Source: a virus
Lineage: Duplodnaviria > Caudoviricetes
Length of the DNA: 55,388 nucleotides
IMG/VR virus record: IMGVR_UViG_3300032893_000060
Location: 1-55,388 of that record
Direction: 5' to 3' (one strand)
The position numbers and the translations under genes were made by a program. Under the pieces are notes generated by a model. It did no database searches. It was not told the origin of the DNA and was given only the letters and a program-made list of their open reading frames with translations. How positions within the stretch are numbered: position 1 is the stretch's first letter; every line of letters starts with the position of its first letter. Below, in pieces: positions 5,436-52,630 of this stretch.

Positions 5436-5452
5436 TTGGCATGAAACCTGCT
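5436..5452 (+). promoter_or_regulatory. sigma54 (-24/-12) promoter upstream of major capsid
   Basis: TTGGCATGAAACCTGCT; GG 5438-39 and GC 5450-51 at canonical spacing; intergenic. Confidence 0.8.
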
Positions 5453-5594
5453 ATCAATTAGTTGCTTCTACGACAAGGGCATGTCACTCTGAGCTACTTT
5501 AGCACAAGGGCATGTGAAGGAGATTGGCCTACGGTTTCCAATCATTCACATTAACAATTTGTGCTACTTTGTAGCCTAAGAGAAAGACAGTTAA

Positions 5595-6905
5595 ATGCCG
5601 TCATACTATGACGCTCCAAGCGTCTTTGGAAACGCGGTTGTGGAAGACGTCAACCGCTTTAATCAACTTCCTTTCTATCTTGTTCACAACGAGGTTAAGC
5701 AATTTCCTATCTGGAATGAGTTTGATCAAGCATACGGAAAGATCGACTGGGAGACTAATCAAGGTAACATCATGCGTGGTGTTACCCCTCAACGTTCGCC
5801 AGTCGGTCGAGCATTCTTCTTCCCTAATGCGGTAACGCAGGTAGCTAAGAAGGATATCTACCAAGTCACTGAAAGCAAGGAAGAGGCGGCTGTGATGGTT
5901 CATAAGTATGAATCATTCCAGTTTAACTTCATGCCTTCTTTCACGGCTTTCTGGGAAACATACCTTCAATTCGCTAACAAGGACATTGTTGAGAAGATCA
6001 GTATTTCCAACAATCAGTTTATCGAGACAAACATGTGGTTTAATGCCATCAATGTTTATCTCTGTGGCACTGGACTTGTTGGTGGTGCTCCAACAGTAAT
6101 GGGTAATAGTGCTGGTAATGCGGCTGGATCTAAGACGGCTGCATGGCTGGTTGCACTCACTACTGGTGCTCAGGGCAATAATGGTGTTCTCCAGGGTCTT
6201 ACACTTCGCGATCTTTATCGTGCTGTAATGAATCTTCAGGAAGATTTAGCAGCGCCTCCGATGGAAGGTGTAAGGAATATGCCGAAGGATAACGATGGAG
6301 TTAAGGGTCATTACTGGCTCTATCTGTCGTCCGAAGCATTCATGAACTTCACGTTCGATCCAGATGTGGCTGTTTTGAAGCCTCTGAACTTGGACTTGCT
6401 GTTTAATGACTTCAAGGGTTCGCTCTTTGGCACTACTGTTTGTAAGATCAAGAAGTATCCTATCCGCTTCAACATTGTTGATATTAAGGATGCGAATGGC
6501 AATACTCTTTGGGCTGCTGGAATGCCAATAGATCCTGAAATCTTCGATCCGACAGACAATAAGTGGAAGCCGAATCCGTATTGGACTAACCTCACTAGCG
6601 CGCCGTTTGAAATTGCGTGGCTCTGTGGTGAGTCTTATGCGAGAACGATTAAGGTTGGACCTCCGCCCAAGGAGTTCGCAACCACGAACATGTCAGCACA
6701 GAAGTTCTATTCGATGAAGTGGAACGGTGAAGTGCGGCTAACAGATCAAGTGTTGATCACTAATCCTGATGGCACTACTGAATTGAACGTCTATGGTGAA
6801 AACCTGAAGTTCATCAGCAAGCTCACTCATGGTTATCTAGTAGGGGAACGTCGTAATGCGTTTCCGATCTTGCTTCGTAGGAGCCGTCCTGCTGTTCAAC
6901 ACTAA
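5595..6905 (+). CDS. Major capsid protein (putative)
   Basis: 436 aa after scaffold, own promoter and structured leader. Confidence 0.7.
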   Translation: MPSYYDAPSVFGNAVVEDVNRFNQLPFYLVHNEVKQFPIWNEFDQAYGKIDWETNQGNIMRGVTPQRSPVGRAFFFPNAVTQVAKKDIYQVTESKEEAAVMVHKYESFQFNFMPSFTAFWETYLQFANKDIVEKISISNNQFIETNMWFNAINVYLCGTGLVGGAPTVMGNSAGNAAGSKTAAWLVALTTGAQGNNGVLQGLTLRDLYRAVMNLQEDLAAPPMEGVRNMPKDNDGVKGHYWLYLSSEAFMNFTFDPDVAVLKPLNLDLLFNDFKGSLFGTTVCKIKKYPIRFNIVDIKDANGNTLWAAGMPIDPEIFDPTDNKWKPNPYWTNLTSAPFEIAWLCGESYARTIKVGPPPKEFATTNMSAQKFYSMKWNGEVRLTDQVLITNPDGTTELNVYGENLKFISKLTHGYLVGERRNAFPILLRRSRPAVQH

Positions 6906-6923
6906 TAGAAAGGATCTAATAAT

Positions 6924-7463
6924 ATGCGTAAGCTTATTTCAATTGGTGTCAGTCTCTTTGCTGGCTTTACAATGTATGCTGGAGTTCTGACATATAGCAC
7001 TAATCTTGCTGCTGCGGCTAAGTGTAACGTTCCTAACCTTAATGGTGGTGGCGTTATATCTTATGTACTTCTGTCAGCGGATACAACTAATGCTGGTTCA
7101 TGCCTTGTGTATGATTCACCTGGCAATTGGATCACGCAGACAAATAGTGGATATTCGTATAATACATATGGTGTTGTAAATACTAACGGTATGTATAGTC
7201 CTACGACTGGTACTGTTGTATACACATACACTAACTATTATGGCGTTACCTATAACGGGACTAACTACATGGGTAATGAGTTGACTGTTACAAGCAACTA
7301 TGTTGCAGGTTCAACTAATGTCCTGACTCCTATGTTGACTCTTGCAACAGCTACGAATACGTCAACAACCTTCATGGGCATCAACAGAACATTTCGGTCT
7401 GGTATTTGTGTGACGAATACTGGTTCCGGAACTATTGGATTGACATTCGGGATCATCCAGTAG
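6924..7463 (+). CDS. Exported TN-rich protein co-transcribed with capsid (decoration-protein position)
   Basis: MRK + hydrophobic core (MRKLISIGVSLFAGFTMYA); 9 TN dipeptides in 179 aa. Confidence 0.7.
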   Translation: MRKLISIGVSLFAGFTMYAGVLTYSTNLAAAAKCNVPNLNGGGVISYVLLSADTTNAGSCLVYDSPGNWITQTNSGYSYNTYGVVNTNGMYSPTTGTVVYTYTNYYGVTYNGTNYMGNELTVTSNYVAGSTNVLTPMLTLATATNTSTTFMGINRTFRSGICVTNTGSGTIGLTFGIIQ

Positions 7464-7481
7464 ATGCGTTAGGGTAGTTTG

Positions 7482-7520
7482 GGCAGCAGGTAGTTCATTG
7501 GTTTCTACCTGCTGCCTTTT
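7482..7520 (+). terminator. Rho-independent terminator
   Basis: GGCAGCAGGTAG / CTACCTGCTGCC 12-bp stem followed by TTTT. Confidence 0.75.
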
Positions 7521-7534
7521 CCTAGAAAGGAAAT

Positions 7535-7864
7535 ATGATTTTTGATTCGATTGAACGAACTGTAGTAGACACTGGAATTGCTGCACAGACTGTTCCTGAT
7601 AGTGAATCCACTTTAATTATTCCAGATACTAACTCAATGCCAGACGATATCGTCTCTATTGAGCTTTTCAATGCTGGTGATAATAAAGCATATATGGCGT
7701 ATGGCCGTGCTGCTGATAGTGACAAGAATTTTAATGCTTTTCTCTTTCCAGGTGCTGCACTTAATGTAAAGACTAGAATGGCTGTATATTGCTACAGCCC
7801 AGGTGGAACACAAATTGGAATCACTGTTCTTCGCCGCAATAAGGCACTGACTAGCGCACAATGA
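7535..7864 (+). CDS. Small beta-rich virion protein (putative)
   Basis: 109 aa, structural operon, no signal peptide. Confidence 0.6.
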   Translation: MIFDSIERTVVDTGIAAQTVPDSESTLIIPDTNSMPDDIVSIELFNAGDNKAYMAYGRAADSDKNFNAFLFPGAALNVKTRMAVYCYSPGGTQIGITVLRRNKALTSAQ

Positions 7865-10050
7865 AAAAGTTACTGTTTCTCTTATTTGGGCTGCCTACTC
7901 TACTGCTAGCACAAGTAGAGAATCCAGTATTTCCACCGGCGAGTTTGAATGATTTATTGTATGGGTCCAATAAGTATTCGTTTGTTAGCCCATATACATT
8001 AAGTCATTATATCCACAGCACCAATCAAACTACATATACTAATTATACTTCAGTTACACAAACTAATGTCATCATTACAAATTTAGTCAATGGACAAACT
8101 ACATCAAATTTAACAGTTCTTGGATCGTTTACAGCTACTGTTTTGCCTGGATCTGTACAAAATCCACCGTGGCTGAATACAAACGGTCTGCCTCAGTCTG
8201 TTGGTGGCGATGTTAAATTCTTTGGAGATGTTACGATAGATAACGACGCCGAATTTGATATTAATGGTGTTAGCTATCTTAATTATTTATCATCATATGT
8301 CCAGGACCAAGGTTCTTTTCTCTATATGGACTCGGGTGGAGCACTAAATGCCTCTACTAACCCAACTTTTGGTGCTTTCACGGCATGGTGGCCGACGCGA
8401 AACACCGGAGGCGGCGGATCAGCAACCAATGCCATTGCGAACGCGAACGGCAGCGGAACCAACACGAGCTTTTACGATGCGTCCGCAACGACGAGCTTTC
8501 TGCTGGTCACCAACGAGGCGGAAATCGGCGGACCGACAAACTGGCTTGAACTGGGATTCGTGGTGGACGCTGCGAACATCGGCAACTTCCGTTGGATGAA
8601 CTCAGACAATCCTCTGGGTTACTTCTTCAACATGCAGTATTGGCCGCATCATGGAAACTCGATAGACCTGAACTGTCCTGAGATGGTGTTCGATGCGGCG
8701 GCGGGCAACGAGTGCCATTACTTTGAGAGCATCCAGTGGGGCTATCCAAGCTCATCCGTAACTCCCTACGAGTGGTGGTCTAACGGAAATACCCCATATG
8801 TGAAGGGCGGAGTGACTAACTGGAACGTGCGGGATTCTCAGGGATTATGGCAGTGGCGGCTCTTGATGACGACTAATAACTGGGCTAACTCATTCTACGC
8901 CGGGTCGGGCAGCACCAGCGACCATACTCAGCCGTCATTCTTGGCCCGGGCTGATGATGACAACAGCGGGGCTGCGCTGCTTGAGTGGTATGCGTCATTC
9001 GATAATACGCCGGTCGGCACCGGAACCAACATGCACCGGAATTACGATACGGCCAGATTGGGGATGCAGCTTAAACTGCCGCTTGGGACGAACTTACCAA
9101 CACTTACGATTCCAGGAACAGTCAATGCAACAGCATTCGTTGGTGACGGGTCTGGATTAACTGGAGTGTCTGGTTCTGGCTCTGGTATCTCCACCAACGG
9201 CGGCACTGGCACGAACAACATTTTCACTAAGCCAACGATTGTTGACGGATTGTACTCCTTCTCAGGCAACGTCACCAGCACCGTGCCGGGGACGCTTACG
9301 TTGATTGGGCCGAACTACACGAACACTTCGGATGCCAATGGCAACTTCACTAGTCCTGCGAGCGCGAACTATGGTGGGACGGTGACGGCAGCGGGTGGGT
9401 TTAGTGGTCCTGGCACGAGCTTAACAGGAACGGCTGCAAGCCTGACGGCAGGACTGGTAAGCAGCATTTCGGGCAACTCGCTCACGCTCAATCAGGTTAC
9501 GAACCCGTTTAGTGCGAATCCTACTTTGCACGTAAGCATTGACGGCGTAGCAGGAGGTGTGGCGGCAAGCAATGTTACTAGTGGAGGTCAAATCCCGATT
9601 GGCACGCTGTTCGACTACACCACGAATGAAGCGGGTGGTTATCTGCTTGAGACGAGTGGAAGCCCCGCAAGCAGGCATAGGACATTCGATGCCGAGAGCT
9701 TGACCAACCTAATCAGCACCAACATCTCCAGTCGTGCTGTTTATGCCACGAACTTAACCAGCGGGGTAGTAGTAGATGCGACCATCCCCTACCAGAACTT
9801 CGCCACCAACGCTGACATGACAGTGACCGGGTTCAGCGGCTTGGTCTCGGGTTATCGGTATGTCCTGAGCGTGTTCTACCTCAACAGCGACACTGGTCCT
9901 CACGTCTGGACCGCGCCGCCTTACTGCCACTTCCCGACCAACGGTGTCTCGACCAATGTCATGACCATCCCGGCAGGACAGGAGATGGGCGTGTCCTGGG
10001 AGATCAGGCCGGGACTGCGGACGAACATGGTCAACCTTTTGATACCGTAA
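7861..10050 (+). CDS. Tail-fibre-like protein with signal peptide
   Basis: MKKLLFLLFGLPTLLLA-Q; fibre-type FVGDGSGLTGV motif; G/S/T/N rich; 26 TN dipeptides. Confidence 0.7.
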   Translation: MKKLLFLLFGLPTLLLAQVENPVFPPASLNDLLYGSNKYSFVSPYTLSHYIHSTNQTTYTNYTSVTQTNVIITNLVNGQTTSNLTVLGSFTATVLPGSVQNPPWLNTNGLPQSVGGDVKFFGDVTIDNDAEFDINGVSYLNYLSSYVQDQGSFLYMDSGGALNASTNPTFGAFTAWWPTRNTGGGGSATNAIANANGSGTNTSFYDASATTSFLLVTNEAEIGGPTNWLELGFVVDAANIGNFRWMNSDNPLGYFFNMQYWPHHGNSIDLNCPEMVFDAAAGNECHYFESIQWGYPSSSVTPYEWWSNGNTPYVKGGVTNWNVRDSQGLWQWRLLMTTNNWANSFYAGSGSTSDHTQPSFLARADDDNSGAALLEWYASFDNTPVGTGTNMHRNYDTARLGMQLKLPLGTNLPTLTIPGTVNATAFVGDGSGLTGVSGSGSGISTNGGTGTNNIFTKPTIVDGLYSFSGNVTSTVPGTLTLIGPNYTNTSDANGNFTSPASANYGGTVTAAGGFSGPGTSLTGTAASLTAGLVSSISGNSLTLNQVTNPFSANPTLHVSIDGVAGGVAASNVTSGGQIPIGTLFDYTTNEAGGYLLETSGSPASRHRTFDAESLTNLISTNISSRAVYATNLTSGVVVDATIPYQNFATNADMTVTGFSGLVSGYRYVLSVFYLNSDTGPHVWTAPPYCHFPTNGVSTNVMTIPAGQEMGVSWEIRPGLRTNMVNLLIP

Positions 10051-10883
10051 TGAGAACAATTTTGTTCGCCTTTTCAGTCGCATTGGCACTATCCTGTCGG
10101 GCGCAATTTACGATCAATGACGGGAATCTAACTGGGCAGTTGACGCCGGGGCCGATTACTGGGGGCGGCGGATTGAACGACGTGACCAATCTCGTGGGCT
10201 ATCCCGCATTGTCGTTCTGGCTGCCTGGAACTTCAACCTATCACACCAATGGAACTGGCCCATACACCTGTTGGTTGGACGATCTGATGGGCAAGTATTC
10301 TTTGGGGCCACCGACTAACACATACCACACCACTTATTTCCCGTTTAGAACTATCGGAGGGTTGAACGGTCATGATGTTTTGACATTCAACAACATTGGC
10401 AGTTATCCGCCCTACTTATTTTCCAACAATCTAACGAATACTCAGCCGTGGGAGTTATTGATAGTAGCGCGATATACAGGTTCAGCAACGCCAGCCCAGA
10501 ATCAGAACTTAGCAACCTCAAGCGGTGCTCCTACCGTCTGGATGATTGCTACACAGAGCACGGCTAATTTGATCGTGAACGAATCGGGTGTTTATCAGAC
10601 AGACGGAGCTATTCCAGTGTCGTCCTGGGTTATTTATGACTTCGTGATGTCGGGTGCCAATTCTGCTATTTACACAAACGGAATCCTGGCGCTATCCGGT
10701 AATTTTGGAGCCAACGCTTTGAACGGCATGACGATTGGATCGGGCGGGATAACAGGGTGGATTGGAGATGTGGCTGGCATTGTAATGTACACTAATGGCA
10801 CTGGAGCGGGAGGCATTCCGGGGTTGGATGGCACGGCACGCGCCAAGGTTTACAATGGGCTGAAATTTTACTTTGGGCTGTGA
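10050..10883 (+). CDS. Exported ConA/LamG-like lectin-domain protein
   Basis: MRTILFAFSVALALSCRA-Q; SAIYTNG...MTIGS...WIGDVAGIVMY is a LamG-like pattern. Confidence 0.65.
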   Translation: MRTILFAFSVALALSCRAQFTINDGNLTGQLTPGPITGGGGLNDVTNLVGYPALSFWLPGTSTYHTNGTGPYTCWLDDLMGKYSLGPPTNTYHTTYFPFRTIGGLNGHDVLTFNNIGSYPPYLFSNNLTNTQPWELLIVARYTGSATPAQNQNLATSSGAPTVWMIATQSTANLIVNESGVYQTDGAIPVSSWVIYDFVMSGANSAIYTNGILALSGNFGANALNGMTIGSGGITGWIGDVAGIVMYTNGTGAGGIPGLDGTARAKVYNGLKFYFGL

Positions 10884-12328
10884 ACAGAGTGCTGCTGTGC
10901 TTGCTGTTACTCGCGTGTGGCCTGCGAGGTGAAACTCACACAAACCTGACCTATGCCCCGGCACCAGTTGATAATCCGTTGAAAGGAATTGCAGGCAACA
11001 CGTCGCTCTCCACTGGCTCTGGTGGAGCGTTATCAAGGTTCCCGCACAGCCTCATCTATCAAGGCATCCCGCTGAGTTCCATCGTTGTTGCCTCGAACAC
11101 CTATAACTGGGGTCCGCTGGAAACCATTCTGGCCTATGCGACCAACGACAACTATTGCACTCCTGGGGGTTCGGCTGCCGTGGTCAGGTTTGAAATAGAT
11201 GACCCAAACTGGCCCACGAGCGCCATTCCAGCTTATGTGCGAAGCAGTGGTATCTGGACGACTAACTACACGGGAGGGACCTATTGGCCTGACTATACGA
11301 ACACCACACTAATTGATTGTCTGTCCAACTTCATAGTGGCGTTCGCCGCGAATTACGACGGCGACCCGCGTATCGCCTTCGTCGAAATGGGTTTAGTCGG
11401 GTGTTACGGCGAGTGGGACTGCGACAACTGGTGCTCGAAGCTTCTAGCGACACACTTTATCCCAATGACAACCGAGCAAACCCTGTGGCTCACCTGGACT
11501 AATGCGATGCAGAAAACCAAAATCGTCGCCCGTTATCCTAGCGGCCCTGAGAATGGCTACGATGTACCAGTATATCAGACGGGGAACTTGAGTATGGGAT
11601 ACTATGATGATGGATTTACGACCAAAACCCTTCCCAGTGACTACACCGCAGCGAAACCTAACTCAGAGTATTACTACATGTTGCGTTGGGTGCTAAATAC
11701 TGGTTACACCAACAAATGGAAGCAATGGCCCTATGGTGGAGAGACGTATTACGCACAGGGTGCTGGCATATTCAGTAATAATTGTCCAAGCTGCGTTATT
11801 GGAATACAGACCTGGAGCAACTGCGTGAGCGCGTCACATGCCACGTGGATACACGTGCCTTCGGTGTTTTATACCAACTCCTATGACTACCCAGGCCACT
11901 ACACTAACTCTTTAATGGGTGCATATCAGTTGGGCTATGAGTTGTGGGTTCAGTCTATGTCTCAGACCAATTACACTGTTTACGTCACGGTGACCAATAC
12001 GGGAGTCGCGCCGTTCTATTACGACTGGACCGTTCAACTGGCCGCAAGCACCAACGGAACCAGCATCGCCAAGACTTGGAATACCACATGGACTATAAGC
12101 AGCGTAGTGCCGGGAGATGGAGCGGTCACCTATAATTACACCTTGAATGACGCGCCTACTCCCCCTTACACGCTGATGATGCAGGCCGTAAACCCGATGG
12201 CCAATGGCAAGGTGCTCCGCTTTGCCAACGCAAACGAGCACGCGACAGTCACAAACTGGTTGACGCTTGGAACGATAGATCCGGTTTCGCCAACCGCGCC
12301 GCCGTTCCTGATGGGGGTGATGCAGTGA
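10880..12328 (+). CDS. Exported glycoside-hydrolase-like protein (DUF4832-type)
   Basis: Signal peptide; PVDNPLKG, YDGDPRIAFVEMGLVGCYGEW, LGYEL, VTNTGVAPFYYDW. Confidence 0.75.
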   Translation: MNRVLLCLLLLACGLRGETHTNLTYAPAPVDNPLKGIAGNTSLSTGSGGALSRFPHSLIYQGIPLSSIVVASNTYNWGPLETILAYATNDNYCTPGGSAAVVRFEIDDPNWPTSAIPAYVRSSGIWTTNYTGGTYWPDYTNTTLIDCLSNFIVAFAANYDGDPRIAFVEMGLVGCYGEWDCDNWCSKLLATHFIPMTTEQTLWLTWTNAMQKTKIVARYPSGPENGYDVPVYQTGNLSMGYYDDGFTTKTLPSDYTAAKPNSEYYYMLRWVLNTGYTNKWKQWPYGGETYYAQGAGIFSNNCPSCVIGIQTWSNCVSASHATWIHVPSVFYTNSYDYPGHYTNSLMGAYQLGYELWVQSMSQTNYTVYVTVTNTGVAPFYYDWTVQLAASTNGTSIAKTWNTTWTISSVVPGDGAVTYNYTLNDAPTPPYTLMMQAVNPMANGKVLRFANANEHATVTNWLTLGTIDPVSPTAPPFLMGVMQ

Positions 12329-14388
12329 GGATTGCTGTTCTATTGTTGATTGGATTCTCGCTGTGCCTTCACGCACAGGTCATCCCCACGAACTGTGTCA
12401 TCCCTTGGACTCCCGGCGTCACCGTCGGCGTTCGCGGCGGCATCCCTTCGGTGCCAGTGTGGACGAATGCAGTCACTGGGTCATATCATGTAGATAATAC
12501 GGGGGCGACGGATGCTGCACCGGGTATTCTGGCTGCGTGGACAGACTGCCCAAGCAACGGAGCGGTATTCCTGCCGGATGGCACCTACAACATTACAAAT
12601 GGCTTAAACCTTCCAAACCTTAATGGCAGGGTTCTTCGTGGCAATGGGTCCAACACGGTCCTAGTCGGCTGGATAAACTTCACCAGTAAGGAGACTGACA
12701 CGCCAGTCTGCGAGGTTAACGACATTCTTCCTGTGCACAAAGGCGACACCAACATCACGATGGTTCCAATGCCGTCTTTGTGGTCGTTCGCAGTGGGGGA
12801 TATGTGGGACATTTCAGGCGCTTTCTCGCGGACGAATCAGGCATTCCCGGTGTGCAATGTCGGAATGACGGCCTACACACTTTATCAGACATTGCTAGTC
12901 ACTGCCGTCACTTCGTCCAATATCTCGGTATGGCCCCCGGTGGTGCTGGACTTCACGAATGGCACTATTCTTAAGGACATTGCTGCGCCGTCCGCTATTG
13001 GCAAGAGGATCGGACTGGAGCACTACACCATCGTGCAAAGCAACTCTGTGGTGGTCGGTCCAGTAGCCCCATCCTGTCCGCAAAACTTCGGAGTTTTAAT
13101 GGATTCGTGGATGTATGATGTGACTGTGAAAGACACGGCTGCAAACTACGGCATTGACGGAGGGGCCACTGTTTGCTGCCAGATTGATAGCTGCCAGATT
13201 GGGCCGTGCTCGGCATCGGGCACTTCGACGGGCGGCGCTTTGATGACCGATTGTAGCGGGATGCTGATTCAAAATAATATATTCGATGGCCTGCCGCAGA
13301 ACGGCTTCCAGATATGGGGCGGGTTCTGCGGCAACGCATTCTTTGGAAACTACTTCACCAACGTGTCTGGAAACGGGGACATATTCTACCATGTTGACCA
13401 CTCTGCCATGAACCTCTACGAGCAGAACAAGTTCGCGTGGCAGATTATTCACGACGGATATACCAGCTCGTCTTCGCACGCGATTTACTTGCGGAACCAG
13501 GCTGGGCCGTGGGGGTTTGTACTAAAGCGGTGGGTGAGCAACGTAGCTATCGTGGGGAATGTGGTGCCGACTGGAACAGGGTATCCGATGGTTTACTCAC
13601 GTTATGAGACTGGGAGCGGGTTTAATCAACCTTTTCCAATTATGTACTTCGGTTACCCGAATATCGGCAACAACGCCGCTTCGGACTTTAGTCCGCCGGT
13701 GGACATGAACTATCCCGGCACGAATTGGAACAGCTACGGTGTGAACAACAATGGTTCGACGGTGCTGACCAACACGCAGCTTCTGACAACCAACCTGCAA
13801 GGCAACTTCTCGTGGCTGACACTGATAAATGGTAATCCTGCCGCGACTCCACTGCTATTTCAGGATACGGTTAATACGAATAACTACTACCCATACCCGA
13901 ACACCTTGGGAATCCAGCCGTCTGGTGGCATAGCCACTTGGAATAATGACGGCACGATCTACGCAGAGGCGAACGGTACGTCGAGTAACCTGCTAATTAA
14001 CATACCGCTAACTGTGAGCAATGGTTGGCGGGTGTGGGTCGGCGGCGTTGGGTTCTTCCAGCACATTACTACAAACCTGCTCGCAACGCTTACCGTGACC
14101 GGGAACAGCGTAGTCACAAACGTTGACGGTGTGTCCTCAAATGTTGTGTGGGATGCCAACGGAGTGCAAGCAATCCCCGACTCCTTGCTCTATCCTGGTG
14201 GTCCTAATGCGTGGCCCAGTCTCGCGGCGTGGTGGGGGACTAATAGGTGGCCTGCGATAGGCGTTGATAAGTCACCAATGATCACCCACATCCCGGCTGA
14301 GAACCGGTTTAATGGTCAGCAGAATGGAACAAATGTAGCGCCAGTAGTAATGAATATGCCCCCACACATACTTGGAGTAATGCAATGA
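12325..14388 (+). CDS. Exported pectate-lyase-like beta-helix protein (depolymerase/tailspike-like)
   Basis: MRIAVLLLIGFSLCLHA-Q; DNTGATDAAPGILAAWTDCPSNGAVFLPDGTY and VLRGNG are typical of Pectate_lyase_3-type N-termini. Confidence 0.75.
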   Translation: MRIAVLLLIGFSLCLHAQVIPTNCVIPWTPGVTVGVRGGIPSVPVWTNAVTGSYHVDNTGATDAAPGILAAWTDCPSNGAVFLPDGTYNITNGLNLPNLNGRVLRGNGSNTVLVGWINFTSKETDTPVCEVNDILPVHKGDTNITMVPMPSLWSFAVGDMWDISGAFSRTNQAFPVCNVGMTAYTLYQTLLVTAVTSSNISVWPPVVLDFTNGTILKDIAAPSAIGKRIGLEHYTIVQSNSVVVGPVAPSCPQNFGVLMDSWMYDVTVKDTAANYGIDGGATVCCQIDSCQIGPCSASGTSTGGALMTDCSGMLIQNNIFDGLPQNGFQIWGGFCGNAFFGNYFTNVSGNGDIFYHVDHSAMNLYEQNKFAWQIIHDGYTSSSSHAIYLRNQAGPWGFVLKRWVSNVAIVGNVVPTGTGYPMVYSRYETGSGFNQPFPIMYFGYPNIGNNAASDFSPPVDMNYPGTNWNSYGVNNNGSTVLTNTQLLTTNLQGNFSWLTLINGNPAATPLLFQDTVNTNNYYPYPNTLGIQPSGGIATWNNDGTIYAEANGTSSNLLINIPLTVSNGWRVWVGGVGFFQHITTNLLATLTVTGNSVVTNVDGVSSNVVWDANGVQAIPDSLLYPGGPNAWPSLAAWWGTNRWPAIGVDKSPMITHIPAENRFNGQQNGTNVAPVVMNMPPHILGVMQ

Positions 14389-39526: not shown

Positions 39527-39541
39527 AATATTAAAGTTAAG

Positions 39542-39654
39542 TGAGCGTGGCAGGATTTGAACCTGCATGTATCACATTTCCAATACCTTAGGCGACATGA
39601 TACTAGCCCAGTTTACCTGGTAAACATAGCGTCTTTACATTCCGCCACACGCCC
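39542..39654 (-). ncRNA. tRNA-like RNA (Leu-type shell, enlarged centre, no encoded CCA)
   Basis: Acceptor GGGCGTG/CACGCTC+A, TGGCGGAAT...AGACGC D arm, GCAGG-TTCAAAT-CCTGC T arm; 113 nt. Confidence 0.7.
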
Positions 39655-40054
39655 ATAAATCGTTCCCTCTAGTCTCCACCGTGAAGTGAAGGACGCCGAA
39701 GCATCATGTTCCACACACTAGAGGGATGAGTGGTCCGTTACTATTCCACGAACCAGCAGGAAGTCAGACAGTTATTAAGATGAACTGTCGGCAACTATAC
39801 TACCACTAGTTCCCCATCTAGTGAGTGTTAGGCTCGCACCCTTCGCTCACTCTATAGTGGCAGCTAACCAAGCCAGAAGATATTGCTACCTTGCACAGCT
39901 TGGAAATAAACTAGCCGCTTAGCCTTATATGGCATCCCTGTCACAGGATTCTGTTTTTGTAGGTTTGCAGTGACATGCTAAACCACTTTGTTCAGATATA
40001 GAGCAATGCTCCATGCGGCCAAAATCAAAGATCGTCGAGGGCACCTAGAATGTA

Positions 40055-40071
40055 AGCATTTTTCGTGCCAC
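40055..40071 (-). promoter_or_regulatory. sigma54 promoter for the ncRNA/replication operon
   Basis: Minus strand GTGGCACGAAAAATGCT; canonical spacing; intergenic. Confidence 0.8.
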
Positions 40072-40118
40072 ATTTTTGCTATTGTATTCAGTTGTATAAG
40101 GATGATACAAGAGTAGAA

Positions 40119-45305: not shown

Positions 45306-45484
45306 ATTATATCTTGTCTGTTAATACAACTTCATTAAGTATATCATGAAGTCTATCTGATGGTAAGAGATAGCTTGGTGCAGATTGATAACGTTCAACT
45401 GCATCTCGTATCCCCTGTTTCCAAGCATCGAGTTGGATTTGTTTTATATGATCTATGCAAGATTGATCTGTTGGAAATGTATTA

Positions 45485-45697: not shown

Positions 45698-46137
45698 AGC
45701 TCACTCTCTTTCTCAATTAGTTTCTTTACTCCACATTGCGCTACTTTCAGATGCATAGTCTTACACTTAATGATTGACAAAGCACACAAAGTCGATCTCT
45801 CAATGGGCATATTGTATTTGTAGGTAATTTGCTTTGCTACAAGCTTCACATTAGCCTCGAAGATGAATCTCGCAACCCGCTCATCATTCGCCCTTTTCCT
45901 CTGTCTCTCCCAAAGATCAACTGACTCTATCCATGCTTTGTAACGCCAGAGAAGTGGACGTTTTAAGTCTGGATTGTATTTGTCTGGCCATTGGACATAA
46001 TAGGTCAACCGATTCTTGAGCTTAATGTCTAGTATCTCTGCTACCGACGCTCGAATTGGGACAGAATGATTCTCACCTAATGTGTCTTCGAGATACTCGT
46101 CGAGTGGTAGAGTGATTGTGTCGGGTGGCTTTTTCAT
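45694..46137 (-). CDS. Hypothetical protein
   Basis: 147 aa. Confidence 0.6.
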   Translation of the reverse strand: MKKPPDTITLPLDEYLEDTLGENHSVPIRASVAEILDIKLKNRLTYYVQWPDKYNPDLKRPLLWRYKAWIESVDLWERQRKRANDERVARFIFEANVKLVAKQITYKYNMPIERSTLCALSIIKCKTMHLKVAQCGVKKLIEKESEL

Positions 46138-46320
46138 TCATCTTGTGGTGCCTTGAATGATGTTGATTATCTCAACGAGAGCAGCATTATAGTTGCGAAC
46201 TCCAAAGCTTAATGCTCGTATCTTATCCAAGACGATCTGTCGCTCTTGCTCTAGTTTCGCAATCTTTTGGCGAAGATTGTCAACCTCTTTTTGCTCTTCG
46301 GGAGTCATATGATTAAACAC
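46138..46320 (-). CDS. Hypothetical coiled-coil protein
   Basis: 60 aa abutting next gene. Confidence 0.55.
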   Translation of the reverse strand: MFNHMTPEEQKEVDNLRQKIAKLEQERQIVLDKIRALSFGVRNYNAALVEIINIIQGTTR

Positions 46321-46413
46321 AAATACGCCGACTAGGTTACATCACCCATCGGCTTTTCGGTTGTTATCCGAAGTCTGGAGCCTAAGCGAGTGGCCTAAGC
46401 TCCAGGTGTTCGA

Positions 46414-46815
46414 CTAACCTATACCCAGAGCAGCACGCTCTTCTGCCGTTAATTTGGCGATTGCTTGATCTTTTATTGAAAATTGCTTTTGTCTTACTTC
46501 TCGTCTTTGTTTCATTTGCAAATAGTGTTCTCTTTTAAACTTAAGCAACTGTTGTTTAGTTGGTCGTAGTGATATTTGTAAATCAGTTAATAATTTCTGT
46601 TTATTAACCGAACCATCAATTTCTATTTGATCCAAACAAATATCCATGCATAATGCACGAAGATGCCGATTAAGCACTTTAGCTAATACAGGTTTTGAGA
46701 ATAGCTTTAGTGCTCCGTTAATATTATTCTCGGTCACCTTATAACCAAGAAATGTCCTACCATAATTAAAACTTTTCTTTCCTATTGTTTGTATTGTTAG
46801 TTTCATTTTACTCAC
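46414..46815 (-). CDS. Hypothetical protein
   Basis: 133 aa ending AKLTAEERAALG. Confidence 0.6.
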   Translation of the reverse strand: MSKMKLTIQTIGKKSFNYGRTFLGYKVTENNINGALKLFSKPVLAKVLNRHLRALCMDICLDQIEIDGSVNKQKLLTDLQISLRPTKQQLLKFKREHYLQMKQRREVRQKQFSIKDQAIAKLTAEERAALGIG

Positions 46816-46834
46816 TTTTTGTTAGTTGTTAACT

Positions 46835-46868
46835 GAAAGAAAGGGACTGAAATTATTCAATCCCTTCT
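46835..46868 (-). terminator. Probable intrinsic terminator
   Basis: Minus strand AGGGATTGAA-TAAT-TTCAGTCCCT then TTCTTTC, just after the 209-aa gene. Confidence 0.6.
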
Positions 46869-46886
46869 GTTTTAACTAACGACTGA

Positions 46887-47516
46887 CTACTTGGTGGCAG
46901 TAGTAGCTTTTTCCTCTTCCTCTTCTTCCTTCTGGCGTTGCTGGCGCTTCGCAACTCTCTCTGCATACTTCGCATCAAGAGCGGCCTTACTGATCTTCAA
47001 AGGCTGGATCAATGCAGCCAATTCGATCATCCTGTTTTCCAATACAATGGCACGAGCCGTCTTAGGCGTGGCAGGAGTTCCATCCTCCGTAGCGCCGAAG
47101 CTATCGTCATTGATGATAGACTGCTGCTCATCAACATAGACACTAATCTGGCCGATAATGTCTTTCAGCTTCTCAACACCCGCTGTAAACTGACTCCACT
47201 CAACCATCATATTCTCCTCATTGAGGAGACCAGTAGTCTCATTGATATTGTCCAAGTAAATGTCTTGAAAAATACCACGAGCCTCGCGAGTGAGGGCAGT
47301 TGCCGCATCTTTCAAACCGAACCACAGAAGATCAGCAATGTTGGTTAGACATTGGAGTGTGCTTCCATTCTTCAGTTCTACCTCTGAAAGGATAGGAGGT
47401 TCGATGGTTGGAAAATAGAAGGACTTGCCGAAGTTCTTCTTGTTCTTCTTACCGAATTTACCCTCAACGAGAGTCTTATTGACTCCATTACGTTCTACAT
47501 TTAAGTTCAGACTCAT
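46887..47516 (-). CDS. Hypothetical protein
   Basis: 209 aa, A-rich leader, followed by terminator. Confidence 0.7.
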   Translation of the reverse strand: MSLNLNVERNGVNKTLVEGKFGKKNKKNFGKSFYFPTIEPPILSEVELKNGSTLQCLTNIADLLWFGLKDAATALTREARGIFQDIYLDNINETTGLLNEENMMVEWSQFTAGVEKLKDIIGQISVYVDEQQSIINDDSFGATEDGTPATPKTARAIVLENRMIELAALIQPLKISKAALDAKYAERVAKRQQRQKEEEEEEKATTATK

Positions 47517-47574
47517 TTGTTTTGTTTCTATTTGTTGTTTACTGTTTTACCGTGCAACTAGCTTCACGTGCGAG

Positions 47575-47718
47575 CTAGTTGGAAATCTTGCAGAATCTCT
47601 TGTTGATCCATTCTCCGCGATCATTGTCTTTCCATGTGACAAGATAGAAAGATGAACCAACTTGAATGACTTTGCCTTCGAACGAATGTCCGTTTGGTAG
47701 TGCTACTGTGATTTTCAT
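47575..47718 (-). CDS. 47-aa small beta-barrel (SH3/Tudor-like) protein (not in ORF track)
   Basis: MKITVALPNGHSFEGKVIQVGSSFYLVTWKDNDRGEWINKRFCKISN; ATGA-coupled. Confidence 0.55.
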   Translation of the reverse strand: MKITVALPNGHSFEGKVIQVGSSFYLVTWKDNDRGEWINKRFCKISN

Positions 47719-47972
47719 TGTATTACATTCTTTGGTGGACGAGTTGCAACCGGACGGCGAACTACTAGATTGATTTGTCCTTTCTCGTATCGTCCGGCCT
47801 TCTCACCGAAATACTTTTCGCTGACTAAAATCCAACCATGATTTGATTCATCATTTGGATCAACCTCAGCGAATGTCTGAATGTCGGGATCAAAATTATT
47901 CATTGTGTTAATCTGATCTTCTGCTTTGATTGTCTCATTTGGTCTTAGTATTCTGTATCTCATAATGCTCAC
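47715..47972 (-). CDS. Hypothetical protein
   Basis: 85 aa, first gene after a sigma54 promoter. Confidence 0.6.
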   Translation of the reverse strand: MSIMRYRILRPNETIKAEDQINTMNNFDPDIQTFAEVDPNDESNHGWILVSEKYFGEKAGRYEKGQINLVVRRPVATRPPKNVIQ

Positions 47973-48003
47973 TCTTTCATTGGTTTTGCCGTGCTAGGTA
48001 TAT

Positions 48004-48020
48004 AGCAATTTGCGTGCCAA
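48004..48020 (-). promoter_or_regulatory. sigma54 promoter, near-perfect consensus
   Basis: Minus strand TTGGCACGCAAATTGCT; intergenic. Confidence 0.9.
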
Positions 48021-48084
48021 GTGCATCTCACTAGAAGCAGTCGAATTGATATAACCTAGTATAGGGTTAGTGGCTACTATTTAA

Positions 48085-48330
48085 CTAGCGCAACAGTTCG
48101 TGAAATATACTATTGACATGTCGATTGCGTGTATCGCGTGCTTCATTTAATTGATGGCTGATTTCATCTACTTTTTGCTGTGCAATAGCTAATTGGTGAA
48201 CTGTTTCAGGTGTTAGCATACAAACAAGGTTTGATGCCGACTGTTGAACACAACGAATCGCATTATTGACTTCGTATCTGTCATTCATATTAGTCTCTCC
48301 TATACTGTAGGATTGTATTCGTAGTATCAT
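48085..48330 (-). CDS. Hypothetical protein
   Basis: Early-region ORF; start may be the internal MND. Confidence 0.5.
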   Translation of the reverse strand: MILRIQSYSIGETNMNDRYEVNNAIRCVQQSASNLVCMLTPETVHQLAIAQQKVDEISHQLNEARDTRNRHVNSIFHELLR

Positions 48331-48481
48331 CGCCTAATATCTGGCGAAGATGCTCTACTTTGTCTTTGTGCTTGATTTTGATTTCAGTTAACGACATTGC
48401 AAACGGCTGGATTGGAATACGAATCCAATGTCCATTTACTAATGTTCGCCTATCTGTTCGGCCACCGATTAGTGTTCTCAC
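48290..48481 (-). CDS. Hypothetical protein
   Basis: 63-aa early-region ORF. Confidence 0.45.
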   Translation of the reverse strand: MRTLIGGRTDRRTLVNGHWIRIPIQPFAMSLTEIKIKHKDKVEHLRQILGDDTTNTILQYRRD

Positions 48482-48650
48482 TTGTTAATTGCTTTCTTAG
48501 ACTATTTATTTGCTTGTGAATAGCAAGACAATCTTTAGGCATCATTAGTGGAAATGTCTTTGGATTGTCTAAGTCTATCCCTTGTTCAGCCAATTTAGTC
48601 TCTAATTGGTCGAACAAATCCATTATTTGGCTTATGGTCGATTTCTCCAT
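48450..48650 (-). CDS. Hypothetical protein
   Basis: 66-aa early-region ORF. Confidence 0.55.
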   Translation of the reverse strand: MEKSTISQIMDLFDQLETKLAEQGIDLDNPKTFPLMMPKDCLAIHKQINSLRKQLTSENTNRWPNR

Positions 48651-48784
48651 ATTCGTATAATGTCACAGACGGCTTTCGTAATGATCCAGAAAGAAATGGA
48701 GAGCATTAAGATTGTAATGCTCATGTATTGAGGAGAGTAGTACTTGGGCATATGTTTGTTGGAACCTGTTGCTTTCGCTAATGA

Positions 48785-48997
48785 TTAGTGCTTGTCAGCC
48801 ACGCCAAGCTTTTTGCTGACAGTTTCGATTAGCAGATTTTGTGCGTGATCTTCGTCTGCTTTTAGCGTGGTATGCACTTGCTTAATTGTTTCGTCATCGA
48901 ACGCTTCTTTTCGATACTCGAACCAAACTCTAACCTTTCGAAGATTGTTCAATGTTGTGATTGTATTTGACAGTTCTTGATCTAATTGTGTTTGCAT
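48785..48997 (-). CDS. Hypothetical protein
   Basis: 70-aa early-region ORF. Confidence 0.55.
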   Translation of the reverse strand: MQTQLDQELSNTITTLNNLRKVRVWFEYRKEAFDDETIKQVHTTLKADEDHAQNLLIETVSKKLGVADKH

Positions 48998-49267
48998 ATG
49001 TTTTGGACTTAACGCTTAGTGCTTAGTGCTTGGAAATTGATTGTTTGAAGCCGCACTATTAGTGTAATGCGGCGTCAACCAACCTATATATCAACCGGTG
49101 CAAAATGGTATTCATCATTGATGGCATCAAGATGATTTTATTAAGGCATACCACCAAACATCTTCTTTATAGTGTCGCCCTTGCCTAATGGCTTCACAAC
49201 CGGTGCTTGCTAAATCTTAATAGGCAGAAAGCTATGCACTGATAGTATCAGTGAATAGCATGATTAA

Positions 49268-49903
<636 letters not shown>

Positions 49904-50128
49904 AGCTTTCTACCTACTAAGATTTGTGCTTATTGGATAATGAAATGAGAGGGCTACTCCGTTATATGGAATATATCAATCAGAACACTTGTTCATCGCC
50001 GCTCATTGTATCCAATAGTCGTGAGGTAATTTTCACGATAGTTAATGACGAAGGATAGTCGGGATGTAGACTGATAATAGACGACGGAATGCTATGCAGT
50101 TAGTTACTTCCTGAATAGCAATTAGGAA

Positions 50129-50467
50129 CTAGTCAATGTGCAAATAATTTTCTACAAAAGTTTTGGCTGCACCAAGCCCCATAGTTGGGGTGAATGGAGT
50201 GCCATCAGGATTGTGGTCAACAATGCACTTCGACTTATTGTAAGCTGCAATGGCTCCACGAATCATCTTAATGCAGAAGATTTTGTTAGCCTTTGCAACC
50301 TCGTAGTTATGCAATGAATAGTCGATATCTTCGACTGGCCGTTCTATGGATACTTGCACGCTGTCAACTTCAAAAGGCAAAGTATTACTTTGCTTATGTG
50401 CTTCGAGGATAGACTGTTGAACGATCTCAACAGCTTGATATTCCAACATGCTAATGTTTAGTTTCAT
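50129..50467 (-). CDS. Protein with ribosomal bL12 C-terminal-like motif
   Basis: NKIFCIKMIR...MGLGAAKTFVE resembles KIxxIKxVR...GLxEAKxxVE. Confidence 0.55.
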   Translation of the reverse strand: MKLNISMLEYQAVEIVQQSILEAHKQSNTLPFEVDSVQVSIERPVEDIDYSLHNYEVAKANKIFCIKMIRGAIAAYNKSKCIVDHNPDGTPFTPTMGLGAAKTFVENYLHID

Positions 50468-50553
50468 AGCATTCCGCCGTCTAAAACAGTTTGACACCAC
50501 TGCTTATTGCTTTCGCCAGTGGGGTATGTGGACTACCACTAGTCAAACTCTTA

Positions 50554-50908
50554 TAGCTAATCTACCCATGAGGCAAGTCCTAGGTTTAAACTTGCTCTTA
50601 TCCGTCTTGTTCTTATTCATTCGAATGAACAGCATTTAACTAATCCAGTGTTTCTGAATCGAATTCAAGATAGCAAGCCTAAGACTTGCCACGCCGTTCG
50701 AGACTCACATTAGGGGAATTAACTTTTTTCCGCTAATGTGTTGACTCCGCAAATACCATGCCCGTATTTCAGGATACATGGATCATTGGACGCGTCCGAT
50801 TGCGAGGCAGTATCTAATGTCAAAGCGTCGGATACTATATGACTAATCAGGGATAAGTCTTTTCGTATTCTTCGTCTCGTGTGACTTGCCTAATGGATAG
50901 ATTAACTA
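50554..50908 (-). ncRNA. Candidate large structured RNA closed by a 26-bp stem
   Basis: 50554-50579 pairs with 50883-50908, with two G:U pairs on the minus strand; internal hairpins; downstream of a sigma54 promoter. Confidence 0.5.
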
Positions 50909-50942
50909 CGTTACATAATGTTCGCTCGATGCTTATTCTATT

Positions 50943-50959
50943 AGCATTTATCGTGCCAA
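50943..50959 (-). promoter_or_regulatory. sigma54 promoter
   Basis: Minus strand TTGGCACGATAAATGCT; intergenic. Confidence 0.85.
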
Positions 50960-51230
50960 TCGAAAGCAAAAAGAAAACACTATGCCAGCTTGCGTTTTCG
51001 CTGGTATTTAGGGCCGTGTTCTATTTACCCTTTACGCTCTAAGTCAGATTGTGCTCCGTATTCCTATCGCGTCATAGACTAGCCTACGCCTAAGCTGCCT
51101 TGTCTCACCTGTAGTGGACACACTCACCTAGTGCGTAGTGTTTTCCTATGCTGGCGTCTGACTTCTAATGAGGGTTTAACGCTCCCATTGAACTATTGCT
51201 AGCCCAATGGAAGCAACTGACTACTTGACC

Positions 51231-51608
51231 TTAACTGGCCTTTGCCGTCTGGACTGGCAGCTTGGCAAACTTGTCCAGCCAAGTCTTGAATACGGCGGGA
51301 AGCGTGACCTCTGTAGCCGCAAACGAATTGGCCCGGACCATTGCGCTGCACCAAGCGTAGAACTTATTGGGGATTGTGTTCTCTAACTGGCACCGTTCGC
51401 CGGTCTTGGTCTTGGCAATGATTACTTGCCGCTCGTTTCCGTCGTCATCCTTGACGGTTTTCCAATCCTGTGTTGCAGCAGTCTTGGACGCGAGAATTGT
51501 TCCTGCATTAAGGTCGGACTGCACAGCATTGATGACCTTGTTTTCGTCATAGTCACCCATGATATTCGCAACGCAGTTTGGGATGTTGAAACGAATGATT
51601 GTTGCCAT
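51231..51608 (-). CDS. Hypothetical protein, first gene of the minus arm
   Basis: 125 aa flanked by long non-coding regions. Confidence 0.7.
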   Translation of the reverse strand: MATIIRFNIPNCVANIMGDYDENKVINAVQSDLNAGTILASKTAATQDWKTVKDDDGNERQVIIAKTKTGERCQLENTIPNKFYAWCSAMVRANSFAATEVTLPAVFKTWLDKFAKLPVQTAKAS

Positions 51609-52079
51609 ATATGTTTGCTCTCATTTCCTGCTCGCTAGTGACATTTGAACGTCCGTATGGGCATCCAACTATAGGTGGCGTATCTAAACGCGCTATAGGC
51701 TATTGTAGCGGCACTAAACGGGTATGTAATAGGAGCGGTAAACCCTCATTTACTTAACCGAGCTAACCTGTGTTCTTACCGGGATGTAACTATTAAGCTG
51801 CACCCTAATCTTACTTACCGGATACATACCTCAGAGCTTTTGTTATCACGGCTAGGGTTTACGATGCACATCCGATGGTCCGTTGCTAATAGGAGACTAC
51901 TAGCCTTTTAGCGTTCGTCATACCTAAGACTGGTTGCTAGTTCCATTCAAGCCTGCGGATCGCTGCCTGAACATTCGTTATCGCATTTCGCCAACCAGAC
52001 CATATTCAATGCTAACCTAGTGGCTGCCCTTATTGGTTGCCTCAGTTATCACTGCAAAACTGGTCAAAGAACTGAGGTC

Positions 52080-52107
52080 AATATACCAGTGCCACGATTG
52101 ACCGCAA
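52080..52107 (-). promoter_or_regulatory. Possible sigma70-type early promoter
   Basis: Minus strand TTGCGG-N16-TATATT with extended -10 TG; at the head of the minus arm. Confidence 0.3.
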
Positions 52108-52153
52108 CACTAATCTGCTATTTTGTTCTACTTGACTTGTCCCATGGTATTTT

Positions 52154-52562
52154 GATTGTATTGTATCAGGGTTTATATATGTGTAATTTCCATTATAGTA
52201 TATATAGATATAAATTATATAAAATATATTACTATATACTATTATGTATAAGGTGATACAATATAATACAATCTGATATAATTTAATAAACTATATATAC
52301 GGGCCACTAAGAAAAAATCATTTGATACAATCTAATACATTTTGAATTATATCATAATAGGTATATGAGCTATACTACTATAATACAAACTACTATTATC
52401 CTATCTATCATTAGCTTTGCTTCTATAAGCATAACTAATAGTCACCCAATTTGATTGAGTATTGAAATGACGATGACGGGTAGACCCCCAGAAATGAAAA
52501 TGCGAACTGGAACTATACTAATCTCCCAATACAACAATTTCCAATTTCAGACCGATACAATC
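52154..52562. other. AT-rich divergence region with GATACAAT repeats (candidate origin or genome end)
   Basis: Very AT-rich core between the two arms, with direct and inverted (T)GATACAAT copies. Confidence 0.5.
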
Positions 52563-52613
52563 CAGTAGAGAGCCAATGAAATAATAATGACTAGTGGTTT
52601 CGAGGATGAGAGA

Positions 52614-52630
52614 TTGGCATGAGAATTGCT
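52614..52630 (+). promoter_or_regulatory. sigma54 promoter at head of the packaging/structural arm
   Basis: TTGGCATGAGAATTGCT; GG 52616-17, GC 52628-29. Confidence 0.85.

Follow-up and report, generated by a model that had tools for sequence, protein, structure and literature searches.

The 55,388-base window analysed here (IMG/VR record IMGVR_UViG_3300032893_000060), which is a complete, uncultured, roughly 55-kb tailed phage genome, was found to carry five -24/-12 motifs of the sigma-54 (RpoN) type together with a gene for a sigma-54 activator, or bacterial enhancer-binding protein (bEBP). As read from the sequence, the five motifs are very probably true RpoN-dependent promoters that are opened from solution by the phage-made, enhancer-independent activator, and the sigma-54/bEBP mechanism appears to have been captured by this phage lineage as the principal route of its gene expression. 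The main blocks of both genome arms, the rightward one running from 52615 across the record ends to 29604 and the leftward one from about 52150 down to 29684, are headed by the five sites (Table 1).

A preliminary description of the window had listed the five elements with their sequences, coordinates, and strands, all of which were exact, and had given TGGCAYG-N5-TGCT as the pattern that they share. This pattern was matched exactly five times in the window, at 5437 (+), 52615 (+), 40055 (-), 48004 (-), and 50943 (-), against a mean of 0.07 and a largest count of 1 in 100 dinucleotide-preserving shuffles. The earlier judgement that a chance origin was unlikely was thus upheld by the comparison of 5 matches with 0.07 expected, and this comparison, the matrix scan, and the counts in the relatives and in the wider set (below) together exclude chance as the source of the motif. 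The GG-N10-GC spacing was likewise exact at all five sites. On a map built from open reading frames (ORFs), none of the sites contained a coding base and the next gene lay on the same strand in every case (5/5), in agreement with their description as intergenic and pointing into the downstream gene. By their spacing, consensus match, and co-oriented upstream placement, all of which were found at the five sites, these elements match the sigma-54 promoter class on sequence.

The textbook sigma-54 consensus is TGGCACG-N4-TTGCW (in its extended form, YTGGCACG-N4-TTGCW), from which the five sites differ by 0, 1, 1, 1, and 2 mismatches. In the window, this consensus was matched once without any mismatch and five times with at most one, whereas 40 Markov-1 random sequences gave a mean of 0.5 and a maximum of 2 at the latter threshold. 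Four of these five matches were sites of the described set, the site at 5437 having two mismatches. When up to three mismatches were allowed, 91 matches were found against 75 expected, which represents no real enrichment; the consensus signal is present only at high stringency.

A position matrix was trained on the 21 sites of four related phages (G001-G004, IMG/VR contigs of 49-53 kb), with the window excluded. In the matrix scan proposed in the preliminary description, the five sites of the window occupied ranks 1 to 5 with the scores given in Table 1, while the next match reached 13.5 bits, and the maximum per random sequence was 11.0 bits on average (standard deviation 2.6, largest 18.1, n = 100). 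This gap between the five sites and the next match indicated that the window holds five sites and no more. Equal-scoring matches scattered in coding or antisense positions, which the preliminary description had named as the pattern that would speak against it, were absent by the matrix of the relatives. Among the 26 strict sites of the five phages, a T precedes the GG in 16.

Table 1. Promoters, genes, and other features of the 55,388-base window (promoter scores in bits of the relatives' matrix).
Feature	Position	Strand	Predicted start	Observations
P_A, sigma-54 type promoter TTGGCATGAGAATTGCT	52614..52630	+	near 52641	24.6 bits; intergenic
P_B, sigma-54 type promoter TTGGCATGAAACCTGCT	5436..5452	+	near 5463	25.0 bits; intergenic
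P_C, sigma-54 type promoter GTGGCACGAAAAATGCT	40055..40071	-	near 40044	26.1 bits; intergenic
P_D, sigma-54 type promoter TTGGCACGCAAATTGCT	48004..48020	-	near 47993	19.5 bits; intergenic
P_E, sigma-54 type promoter TTGGCACGATAAATGCT	50943..50959	-	near 50932	31.0 bits (best site); within a 730-nt ORF-free stretch
Sigma-54 activator (bEBP) gene, 292 aa	40280..41158	-		PF00158 match, motifs, and fold
AT-rich divergent control region (candidate)	52150..52420			five TGnTAYAAT (extended -10 like) within about 200 nt; several palindromes
ORF-free transcript region behind P_C	39541..40044	-		predicted structured; fold z -3.5, 0/100 shuffles as stable
tRNA-like element	39541-39654	-		3' end of the P_C ORF-free region; extra insertion in the anticodon region
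ORF-free leader behind P_E	50501..50932	-		fold z -6.0, 0/100 shuffles as stable
Swapped tail-spike/depolymerase module (candidate)	7861-14388	+		four ORFs: 729, 277, 482, and 687 aa
1560-aa virion-type protein	24922-29604	+		conserved in all four relatives

On the leftward arm, P_E is followed by 442 nt free of ORFs and by small leftward genes from 50500 to 48085. P_D lies 31 nt before an 85-aa ORF and heads a leftward unit from 47972 to about 40120, which contains a 209-aa gene and, by Pfam, a helicase-like gene of 782 aa, an ATP-dependent DNA ligase, and the activator gene. P_C is located 209 nt beyond the stop codon of the activator and is followed by 486 nt without ORFs; the unit that it heads comprises a putative non-coding RNA and the replication/recombination genes from 39568 to 29684, among which Pfam identified a PD-(D/E)XK nuclease, the exonuclease and polymerase parts of DNA polymerase A in separate ORFs, and DUF3987. 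The label "ncRNA and replication genes" that had been attached to this site was thus appropriate, in that about 490 nt of ORF-free sequence folding better than shuffles (z -3.5) precede the replication genes.

On the rightward arm, P_B lies 3 nt past the stop of a 160-aa ORF and 142 nt ahead of a 436-aa capsid-like gene, and heads the structural block that extends to 29604. The earlier designation of this unit as "capsid" found a structural lead, since the Atlas model of the 436-aa protein, for which no Pfam or PHROG match was obtained, resembled the N4-gp56 and Phage_capsid_3/4 clusters with template-modelling (TM) scores of 0.58-0.65. P_A lies 17 nt upstream of the first rightward ORF, and its unit includes small ORFs, a 217-aa exonuclease-like gene (53120-53773, PHROG 192), a terminase-like ORF across the record ends, and 620-aa and 401-aa genes, up to 5433. 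For the label "packaging arm" given to this unit, a language-model lead to Terminase_6N (0.97, 199 shared features) stood, as a lead only, while neither portal nor terminase was found by Pfam, PHROG, or PDB sequence matching. With the usual -12 geometry, the start predicted for P_A falls 3-7 nt before the earliest start codons available (ATG at 52644 and GTG at 52648), and the same near-leaderless arrangement was seen at 26801-26816 in G003, which suggests that the first gene behind P_A is leaderless or nearly so.

The upstream spacer is 3 nt for P_B and 50-270 nt for the other four promoters. In a search for an enhancer sequence shared by the regions upstream of the five sites, no 9-mer or 10-mer was common to at least three regions, and only one 8-mer was found, at inconsistent positions.

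The phage-encoded activator and its conservation with the motif

The product of the activator gene matched PF00158 (Sigma54_activat) over residues 75-234 with 182.5 bits against a cut-off of 20.2, and with 184.2 bits in the genome search. It contains Walker A (GETGTGKE, 99-106), the GAFTGA loop (143-148), Walker B (DE, 167-168), FREDLYARI (221-229), which corresponds to the arginine-finger region, and sensor II (NVRS, 275-278), the roles of these motifs being those known in the family. All of them were invariant or nearly so across 19 phage homologues, and the loop reads GAFTGA or GSYTGS in five close relatives. In PDB, the best sequence matches were FleQ and NtrC-family activator chains (about 1e-43) and PspF (about 1e-35). 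Furthermore, the AlphaFold model of the protein, with a predicted local distance difference test (pLDDT) score of 91.9, retrieved FleQ, FlrC, NtrC1, NtrC4, LuxO, and PspF by Foldseek at E values of 7e-24 to 1e-18, with TM scores by target of 0.76-0.83.

A C-terminal helix-turn-helix and an N-terminal sensory or receiver domain are typical, but not universal, in bEBPs. The phage protein ends 14 residues past the sensor II NVRS without a C-terminal helix-turn-helix, and there is thus no room for the usual one. On the N-terminal side, no receiver, GAF, or PAS domain was detected, and no Pfam match was present before residue 75. The first ~70 residues were predicted to form two helices, a hairpin, and a helix; the N-terminal 75 residues modelled alone (pLDDT 73) gave no match with Z of at least 5, the best being 3.7, among 48,161 PDB chains, which leaves the fold of this domain unassigned but does not exclude it from any family. 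Every sequence and fold feature tested was found in the 292-aa protein, only the optional DNA-binding and sensor domains being absent, and the protein is accordingly classed as a bEBP. A tblastn search with the activator against 50,697 phage records matched 64 of them; those listed seem to be either host sequence deposited under phage names or brief fragments lacking annotation, and neither a recognisable relative nor a Pseudomonas phage record was among the matches listed.

In the four relatives, the homologues of the activator were 52-61% identical to it, and syntenic proteins in general showed 25-66% identity to those of the window. The strict motif occurred 6, 8, 5, and 2 times in these genomes, whereas the backward-read pattern did not occur at all. 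A site was found before the orthologue of the capsid gene in 5/5 genomes, at a distance of 134-145 nt in four, and directly after the activator gene, also in 5/5. The site before the 209-aa orthologue was present in 4/5 genomes (the window, G001, G002, and G004, the last with the variant TGGCATC), and a positional equivalent was seen in G003. The P_A site had syntenic counterparts in G002, G003, and G004, and the place expected for this region in G001 showed no site; the region equivalent to that of P_E contained one to four sites in the relatives. At the other syntenic sites of G004, single non-core positions are changed with GG-N10-GC kept, as it is in the variant of locus L054. In total, 24 of the 26 strict sites were co-oriented with the next called gene. 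The motif thus keeps its syntenic placement at a protein identity to the relatives of no more than 35-65%.

The spacer that follows the activator gene provided a further view of this conservation. In a five-genome alignment of this spacer (500-700 nt, mean identity 51%), the promoter was the only invariant block. In addition, an unbiased count of 4-mer/gap/4-mer dyads over the 350 nt past the activator stop placed TGGC-N8-TGCT first, at 17 of 19 loci, and a GG-N10-GC variant was present at one of the two exceptions.

Conservation was also assessed in a wider set consisting of the best 80 of 292 IMG/VR stretches that matched a generic activator alignment (1.03 Mb), many of the contigs being of roughly 45-56 kb. 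In these best 80 loci, TGGCAY-N6-TGCW was found 104 times on the strand of the activator and 8 times on the opposite strand, as against 3 and 2 in reversed sequences, and at least one core motif was present in 60 of the 80. A GAFTGA-like loop was seen in 74/80 ORFs of this set. Sixty-nine of the 80 end no more than 18 residues past the alignment and 11 run for at least 45 further residues, some of which may be host-type genes. Where the 3' end was complete, a site lay within 400 nt past the activator stop at 47 of 78 loci, at 40 of them within 3-63 nt. With regard to density, the five phages contain 26 motifs in 260,873 bp, whereas bacterial loci around bEBP genes contain 14 in 879,852 bp.

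As a separate observation, three relatives carry an extra site on the plus strand (G001 16682, G002 17721, and G004 20524), inside the orthologue of a 116-aa gene and just upstream of the orthologue of 22511-23515. It has no counterpart in the window, and G003 showed only a weak match there (10.7 bits at 45637).

Proposed circuit and alternative explanations

The motif with its statistics, placement, orientation, and conservation, and the sequence and fold features of the activator, are direct observations. In the circuit that we infer from them, with regard to the binding of sigma-54, the start sites, the action from solution, the feedback, and an early trigger, host RNA polymerase with host sigma-54 would occupy each -24/-12 element as a closed complex. 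The phage would make a minimal activator, an AAA+ domain with the GAFTGA loop and without DNA-binding or sensor domains, and the ATP-driven ring of this protein would open the closed complexes from solution without enhancers. The lack of a DNA-binding domain, the lack of a shared upstream sequence, and the position of P_B with nearly no upstream spacer together suggest that the activator could act in this manner on any sigma-54 promoter, and, having no sensor domain, it is probably active once made. P_E would then be switched on for the small leftward genes behind their structured leader; P_D for the unit of helicase, ligase, and activator, which would close a positive feedback loop; P_C for the non-coding RNA and the replication genes; P_A for the packaging and head-assembly arm; and P_B for the capsid and tail block.

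The activator gene itself lies inside the unit headed by P_D at 48004, and thus something else must start the circuit; the first activator molecules would come from another source. The best candidate for this trigger in the window is the AT-rich divergent region between the two arms, which may tentatively be regarded as the site of activator-independent early promoters and/or of an origin. One of its five TGnTAYAAT motifs faces left and the others face right or both strands, and one sigma-70-like match with a TG extension was located at 52253-52282. Over 39000-55388, the counts of sigma-70-like and terminator-like consensus matches were not above those of shuffles.

Several observations weigh against this reading. 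The fifth consensus match with at most one mismatch, TGGCTCGGCCCTTGCA at 4858-4873 (-), lies antisense within the ORF 3749-4954. The -12 element mostly reads ATGCT, not the textbook TTGCW, and position -15 is a T in 9 of the 26 sites. The preliminary description had spoken of a "complete cis plus trans system"; the genome does contain a genuine bEBP gene, but the system is not complete in itself, because searches for Sigma54_DBD and Sigma54_CBD found no sigma-54 gene in the window or the four relatives, and host RpoN would thus be needed. As for the trigger, which must come from outside since the activator gene lies in a sigma-54 unit, its source as proposed above is a guess: no TGnTAYAAT cluster comparable to that of the window was found in the four relatives, and a strong sigma-70-like match at 41538-41510, considered as an internal promoter of the activator gene, was rejected, lying as it does in a small ORF and not being conserved in relatives. 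The gene maps were drawn from ORFs, not by a gene caller, and 8 of the 26 strict sites overlap called ORFs in the relatives, mostly over-extended starts or short unconserved ORFs; the G001 site at 16682 falls within a conserved ORF. Lastly, 20 of the best 80 loci of the wider set lack a core motif.

Another explanation is that the motif is the site of some other machinery, a phage polymerase or a DNA-binding factor, that merely resembles a -24/-12 element, with the activator serving to manipulate the sigma-54 genes of the host. Pfam, PHROG, and further protein scans gave no family for the majority of the phage proteins, so that an unrecognised transcription factor is conceivable, and the 1560-aa protein has a weak PHROG match to part of the N4-like virion RNA polymerases. 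This match, however, presumably falls outside the polymerase core; no single-subunit polymerase family was detected among the proteins scanned, and the best PDB match of the 1560-aa protein had an E value of 0.0018. Host sigma-54 promoters, too, would be turned on by a minimal activator that lacks a DNA-binding domain, as indicated by extracts of the work on such a domain (PMC3844500). For this explanation to hold, nevertheless, a coincidence must reproduce the invariant GG and GC, their spacing, the flanking TGGCAY and TGCT, and the linkage to a GAFTGA gene in dozens of phages, and we regard it as very unlikely.

The sites could, alternatively, bind the sigma-54 holoenzyme without being principal promoters, and act as roadblocks, insulators, sigma-54 sinks, or minor boosters in long transcripts. 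Stable binding of the holoenzyme without transcription, and intragenic binding as a common feature of enterobacteria, are described in excerpts of two reports (PMC4591121, PMC3844500). P_B and P_C lie directly behind co-oriented genes, so that read-through is possible, and a scan of 39000-55388, which does not extend to the P_B region, found no terminators just upstream of P_C, P_D, P_E, and P_A. On the other hand, the co-orientation of the sites, complete in the window and 104 to 8 in the wider set, is not required of a roadblock or a sink; the phage devotes a gene to an activator with no known role other than the opening of such complexes; and in all five genomes the sites precede highly expressed genes, the capsid gene among them. 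This possibility is thus considered very unlikely.

The sites can hardly be sigma-70 promoters, with an extended -10 formed by TGCT and the following bases and TTGGCA as the -35: TTGGCA does agree with TTGACA at 5/6 positions and position +16 is A or T in 26/26 sites, but the distance from TTGGCA to the would-be -10 is about 10 nt as compared with the usual 16-18, TGnTAnnnT fits only 4/26 sites and none of the five in the window, and the invariant GGCAYG is left unexplained, for which the extended -10 reading was rejected. RpoN-dependent promoters opened by the phage-made activator are retained as the preferred reading of the five sites.

Transcribed regions and genome layout

The ORF-free regions behind P_C and P_E were both predicted to be structured, and their primary sequence was poorly conserved in the relatives. 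At the 3' end of the former, the tRNA-like element scored 32.3 bits with the Rfam tRNA model, having 53 nt where the model has 13, and was called by ARAGORN only with introns allowed, as a tRNA-Met (CAT) with a 28-nt intron. A syntenic intron-type ARAGORN call, in this case a tRNA-Ser, was obtained in G001 at 34412-34540 (-). This element may be a genuine tRNA, a tRNA interrupted by an intron, or an RNA end that resembles one. In the leader behind P_E, a long-range pairing (inverted repeat I1) joins 26-nt arms at 50554-50579 and 50883-50908 across 303 nt. Rfam gave nothing at E of at most 1 over 50480-52200, and elsewhere gave only the tRNA-like match. Upstream of P_E, another ORF-free stretch of about 540 nt (51609-52150, -) precedes a 125-aa gene (51231-51608), which is bracketed by a 23-nt inverted repeat (51167-51189 and 51728-51750, 91% complementary, 538 nt apart).

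The leader of the capsid gene (5453-5594, +) contains an invariant block, AAGGGCAT, in 5/5 genomes, and the window holds two copies of CAAGGGCATGT. In addition, a TTGC about 10 nt past the capsid promoter was conserved in 5/5 genomes (the window and G001-G004). The block may be an RNA or operator element that controls capsid expression.

Among the genes behind P_C, DNA polymerase A is split over 31894-35277 (-), the exonuclease lying in the ORF 33670-35277 and the polymerase in the ORF 31894-33444; a 75-aa ORF separates the two, and this two-part layout was also found in all four relatives. On the rightward arm, the four ORFs of 7861-14388 have 50-54% G+C, compared with about 42% elsewhere, and lack homologues in all four relatives; a swapped tail-spike or depolymerase module is suggested by weak matches to beta-helix proteins and DUF4832. 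The weak PHROG match of the 1560-aa protein covers residues 581-761 (E 2.8e-10), its best PDB match is annotated as "internal virion protein", and the evidence is insufficient to call this protein a polymerase.

The record carries an exact terminal repeat of 127 bp (1-127 and 55262-55388). The ends of G003 likewise repeat 127 bp, and a repeat of identical size in two distinct phages points to an overlap left by the assembler on a circular map, not to true terminal repeats. The terminase-like ORF spans the junction of the record ends. Genes were mapped as ORFs that span at least 60 aa or have a homologue in a relative, which gave a coding fraction of 0.90. A near-identity DNA search with both halves of the window against the 50,697 GenBank phage records returned no match, nor did tblastn with the capsid-like and helicase-like proteins. 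With regard to the host, a contig scan with the 687-aa beta-helix protein gave no match, and a search with the activator alignment gave only AAA+ domain matches in many phyla, including four near full-length matches without other phage genes or the motif.

Comparison with known systems

Phages redirect host RNA polymerase via sigma-70-family factors, anti-sigma proteins, or polymerases of their own. If the present reading is true, a third general strategy by which phages take over transcription would be added, in which infection would be limited to rpoN-positive hosts and would switch on the host sigma-54 regulon. The phage would also provide a natural, compact, and promiscuous sigma-54 activator with matched strong promoters, and hence a possible orthogonal expression module. 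The whole logic is legible from the sequence, namely an activator reduced to its motor domain, five promoters that head the main units, and a cassette that recurs in dozens of contigs from uncultured phages. The promoters could serve as direct anchor points from which to annotate transcription units and non-coding RNAs in a phage lineage where most proteins match no family. It is possible, if still short of probable, that a large clade of ~50-kb uncultured phages runs essentially all replication and virion expression via its own constitutive, enhancer-independent GAFTGA activator and host sigma-54 promoters placed ahead of all major units, structured non-coding RNAs among them, with the activator gene and the promoter behind it forming a conserved cassette. 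Transcription in such phages would be sigma-70-independent, so that sigma-70 could be silenced without self-harm, and the host sigma-54 regulon would be forced on.

In late transcription of T4 (gp55, gp33, and the gp45 clamp) and of N4, a phage activator lets the host core polymerase open a special late promoter class. T4 employs a sigma-like protein of its own and a sliding clamp, whereas this phage would contribute only an ATPase activator and borrow host sigma-54; as for N4, its gp56 family resembles the capsid protein of this phage by the structural lead described above. The full-text literature searched, outside which most subscription journals lie, yielded no description of a phage that encodes a GAFTGA activator along with a set of sigma-54 promoters for it. 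The closest precedent in the published extracts is the Pseudomonas aeruginosa phage YuA. Phage use of sigma-54 is called "rare" but "not unprecedented" in an excerpt that gives YuA as the example and reports its strict dependence on host sigma-54 for development (PMC5053324, citing Ceyssens 2008), and one sigma-54-like promoter region of YuA was confirmed by ONT-cappable-seq (extract of PMC10914365). A single sigma-54-like promoter is thus mentioned for YuA in these extracts, compared with five in this phage, and YuA appears to lack a bEBP of its own, as no Pseudomonas phage record was among the listed tblastn matches of the activator. An AAA+ protein similar to bEBPs, Htm/Gp204, is known from another phage; in the portion of the 2026 bioRxiv preprint concerned, it is described as lacking the GAFTGA loop and a DNA-binding domain and as having an altered Walker B, with no mention there of sigma-54 promoters in the genome of that phage (10.64898/2026.10.06.757011). 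In contrast, the present activator keeps both GAFTGA and Walker B intact and is accompanied by its own promoter set.

Classical sigma-54/bEBP systems, such as NtrC-glnA, PspF-psp, and the flagellar FleQ/FlrC systems, share with the phage sites the same -24 GG/-12 GC geometry. Their bEBPs and the phage activator are also alike in having an AAA+ domain with GAFTGA, Walker A and B, the arginine-finger region, and sensor II, and match in both sequence and fold. Unlike these systems, the phage system is viral and heads replication and virion gene blocks, its activator has neither a signal-sensing domain nor a helix-turn-helix, no enhancer-like repeats were found upstream of its promoters, and its sigma-54 would have to be borrowed from the host. 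Activators without a DNA-binding domain include CtcC of Chlamydia. Both FlgR of H. pylori and CtcC retain a receiver domain, with phosphorylation as their means of control, whereas the phage activator has a small N-terminal domain of ~70 aa without a recognisable fold. The isolated AAA+ domain of DctD (DctD250) activates many sigma-54 promoters from solution in Salmonella, according to excerpts of a report whose reference list also cites FlgR as enhancer-independent (PMC3844500). DctD250 and FlgR, as far as these excerpts go, and also CtcC resemble the phage protein in its predicted character, as promiscuous activators that act on the sigma-54 holoenzyme from solution and consist of the AAA+ domain only or lack a DNA-binding domain; DctD250 is a laboratory truncation, whereas the phage activator is a natural gene.

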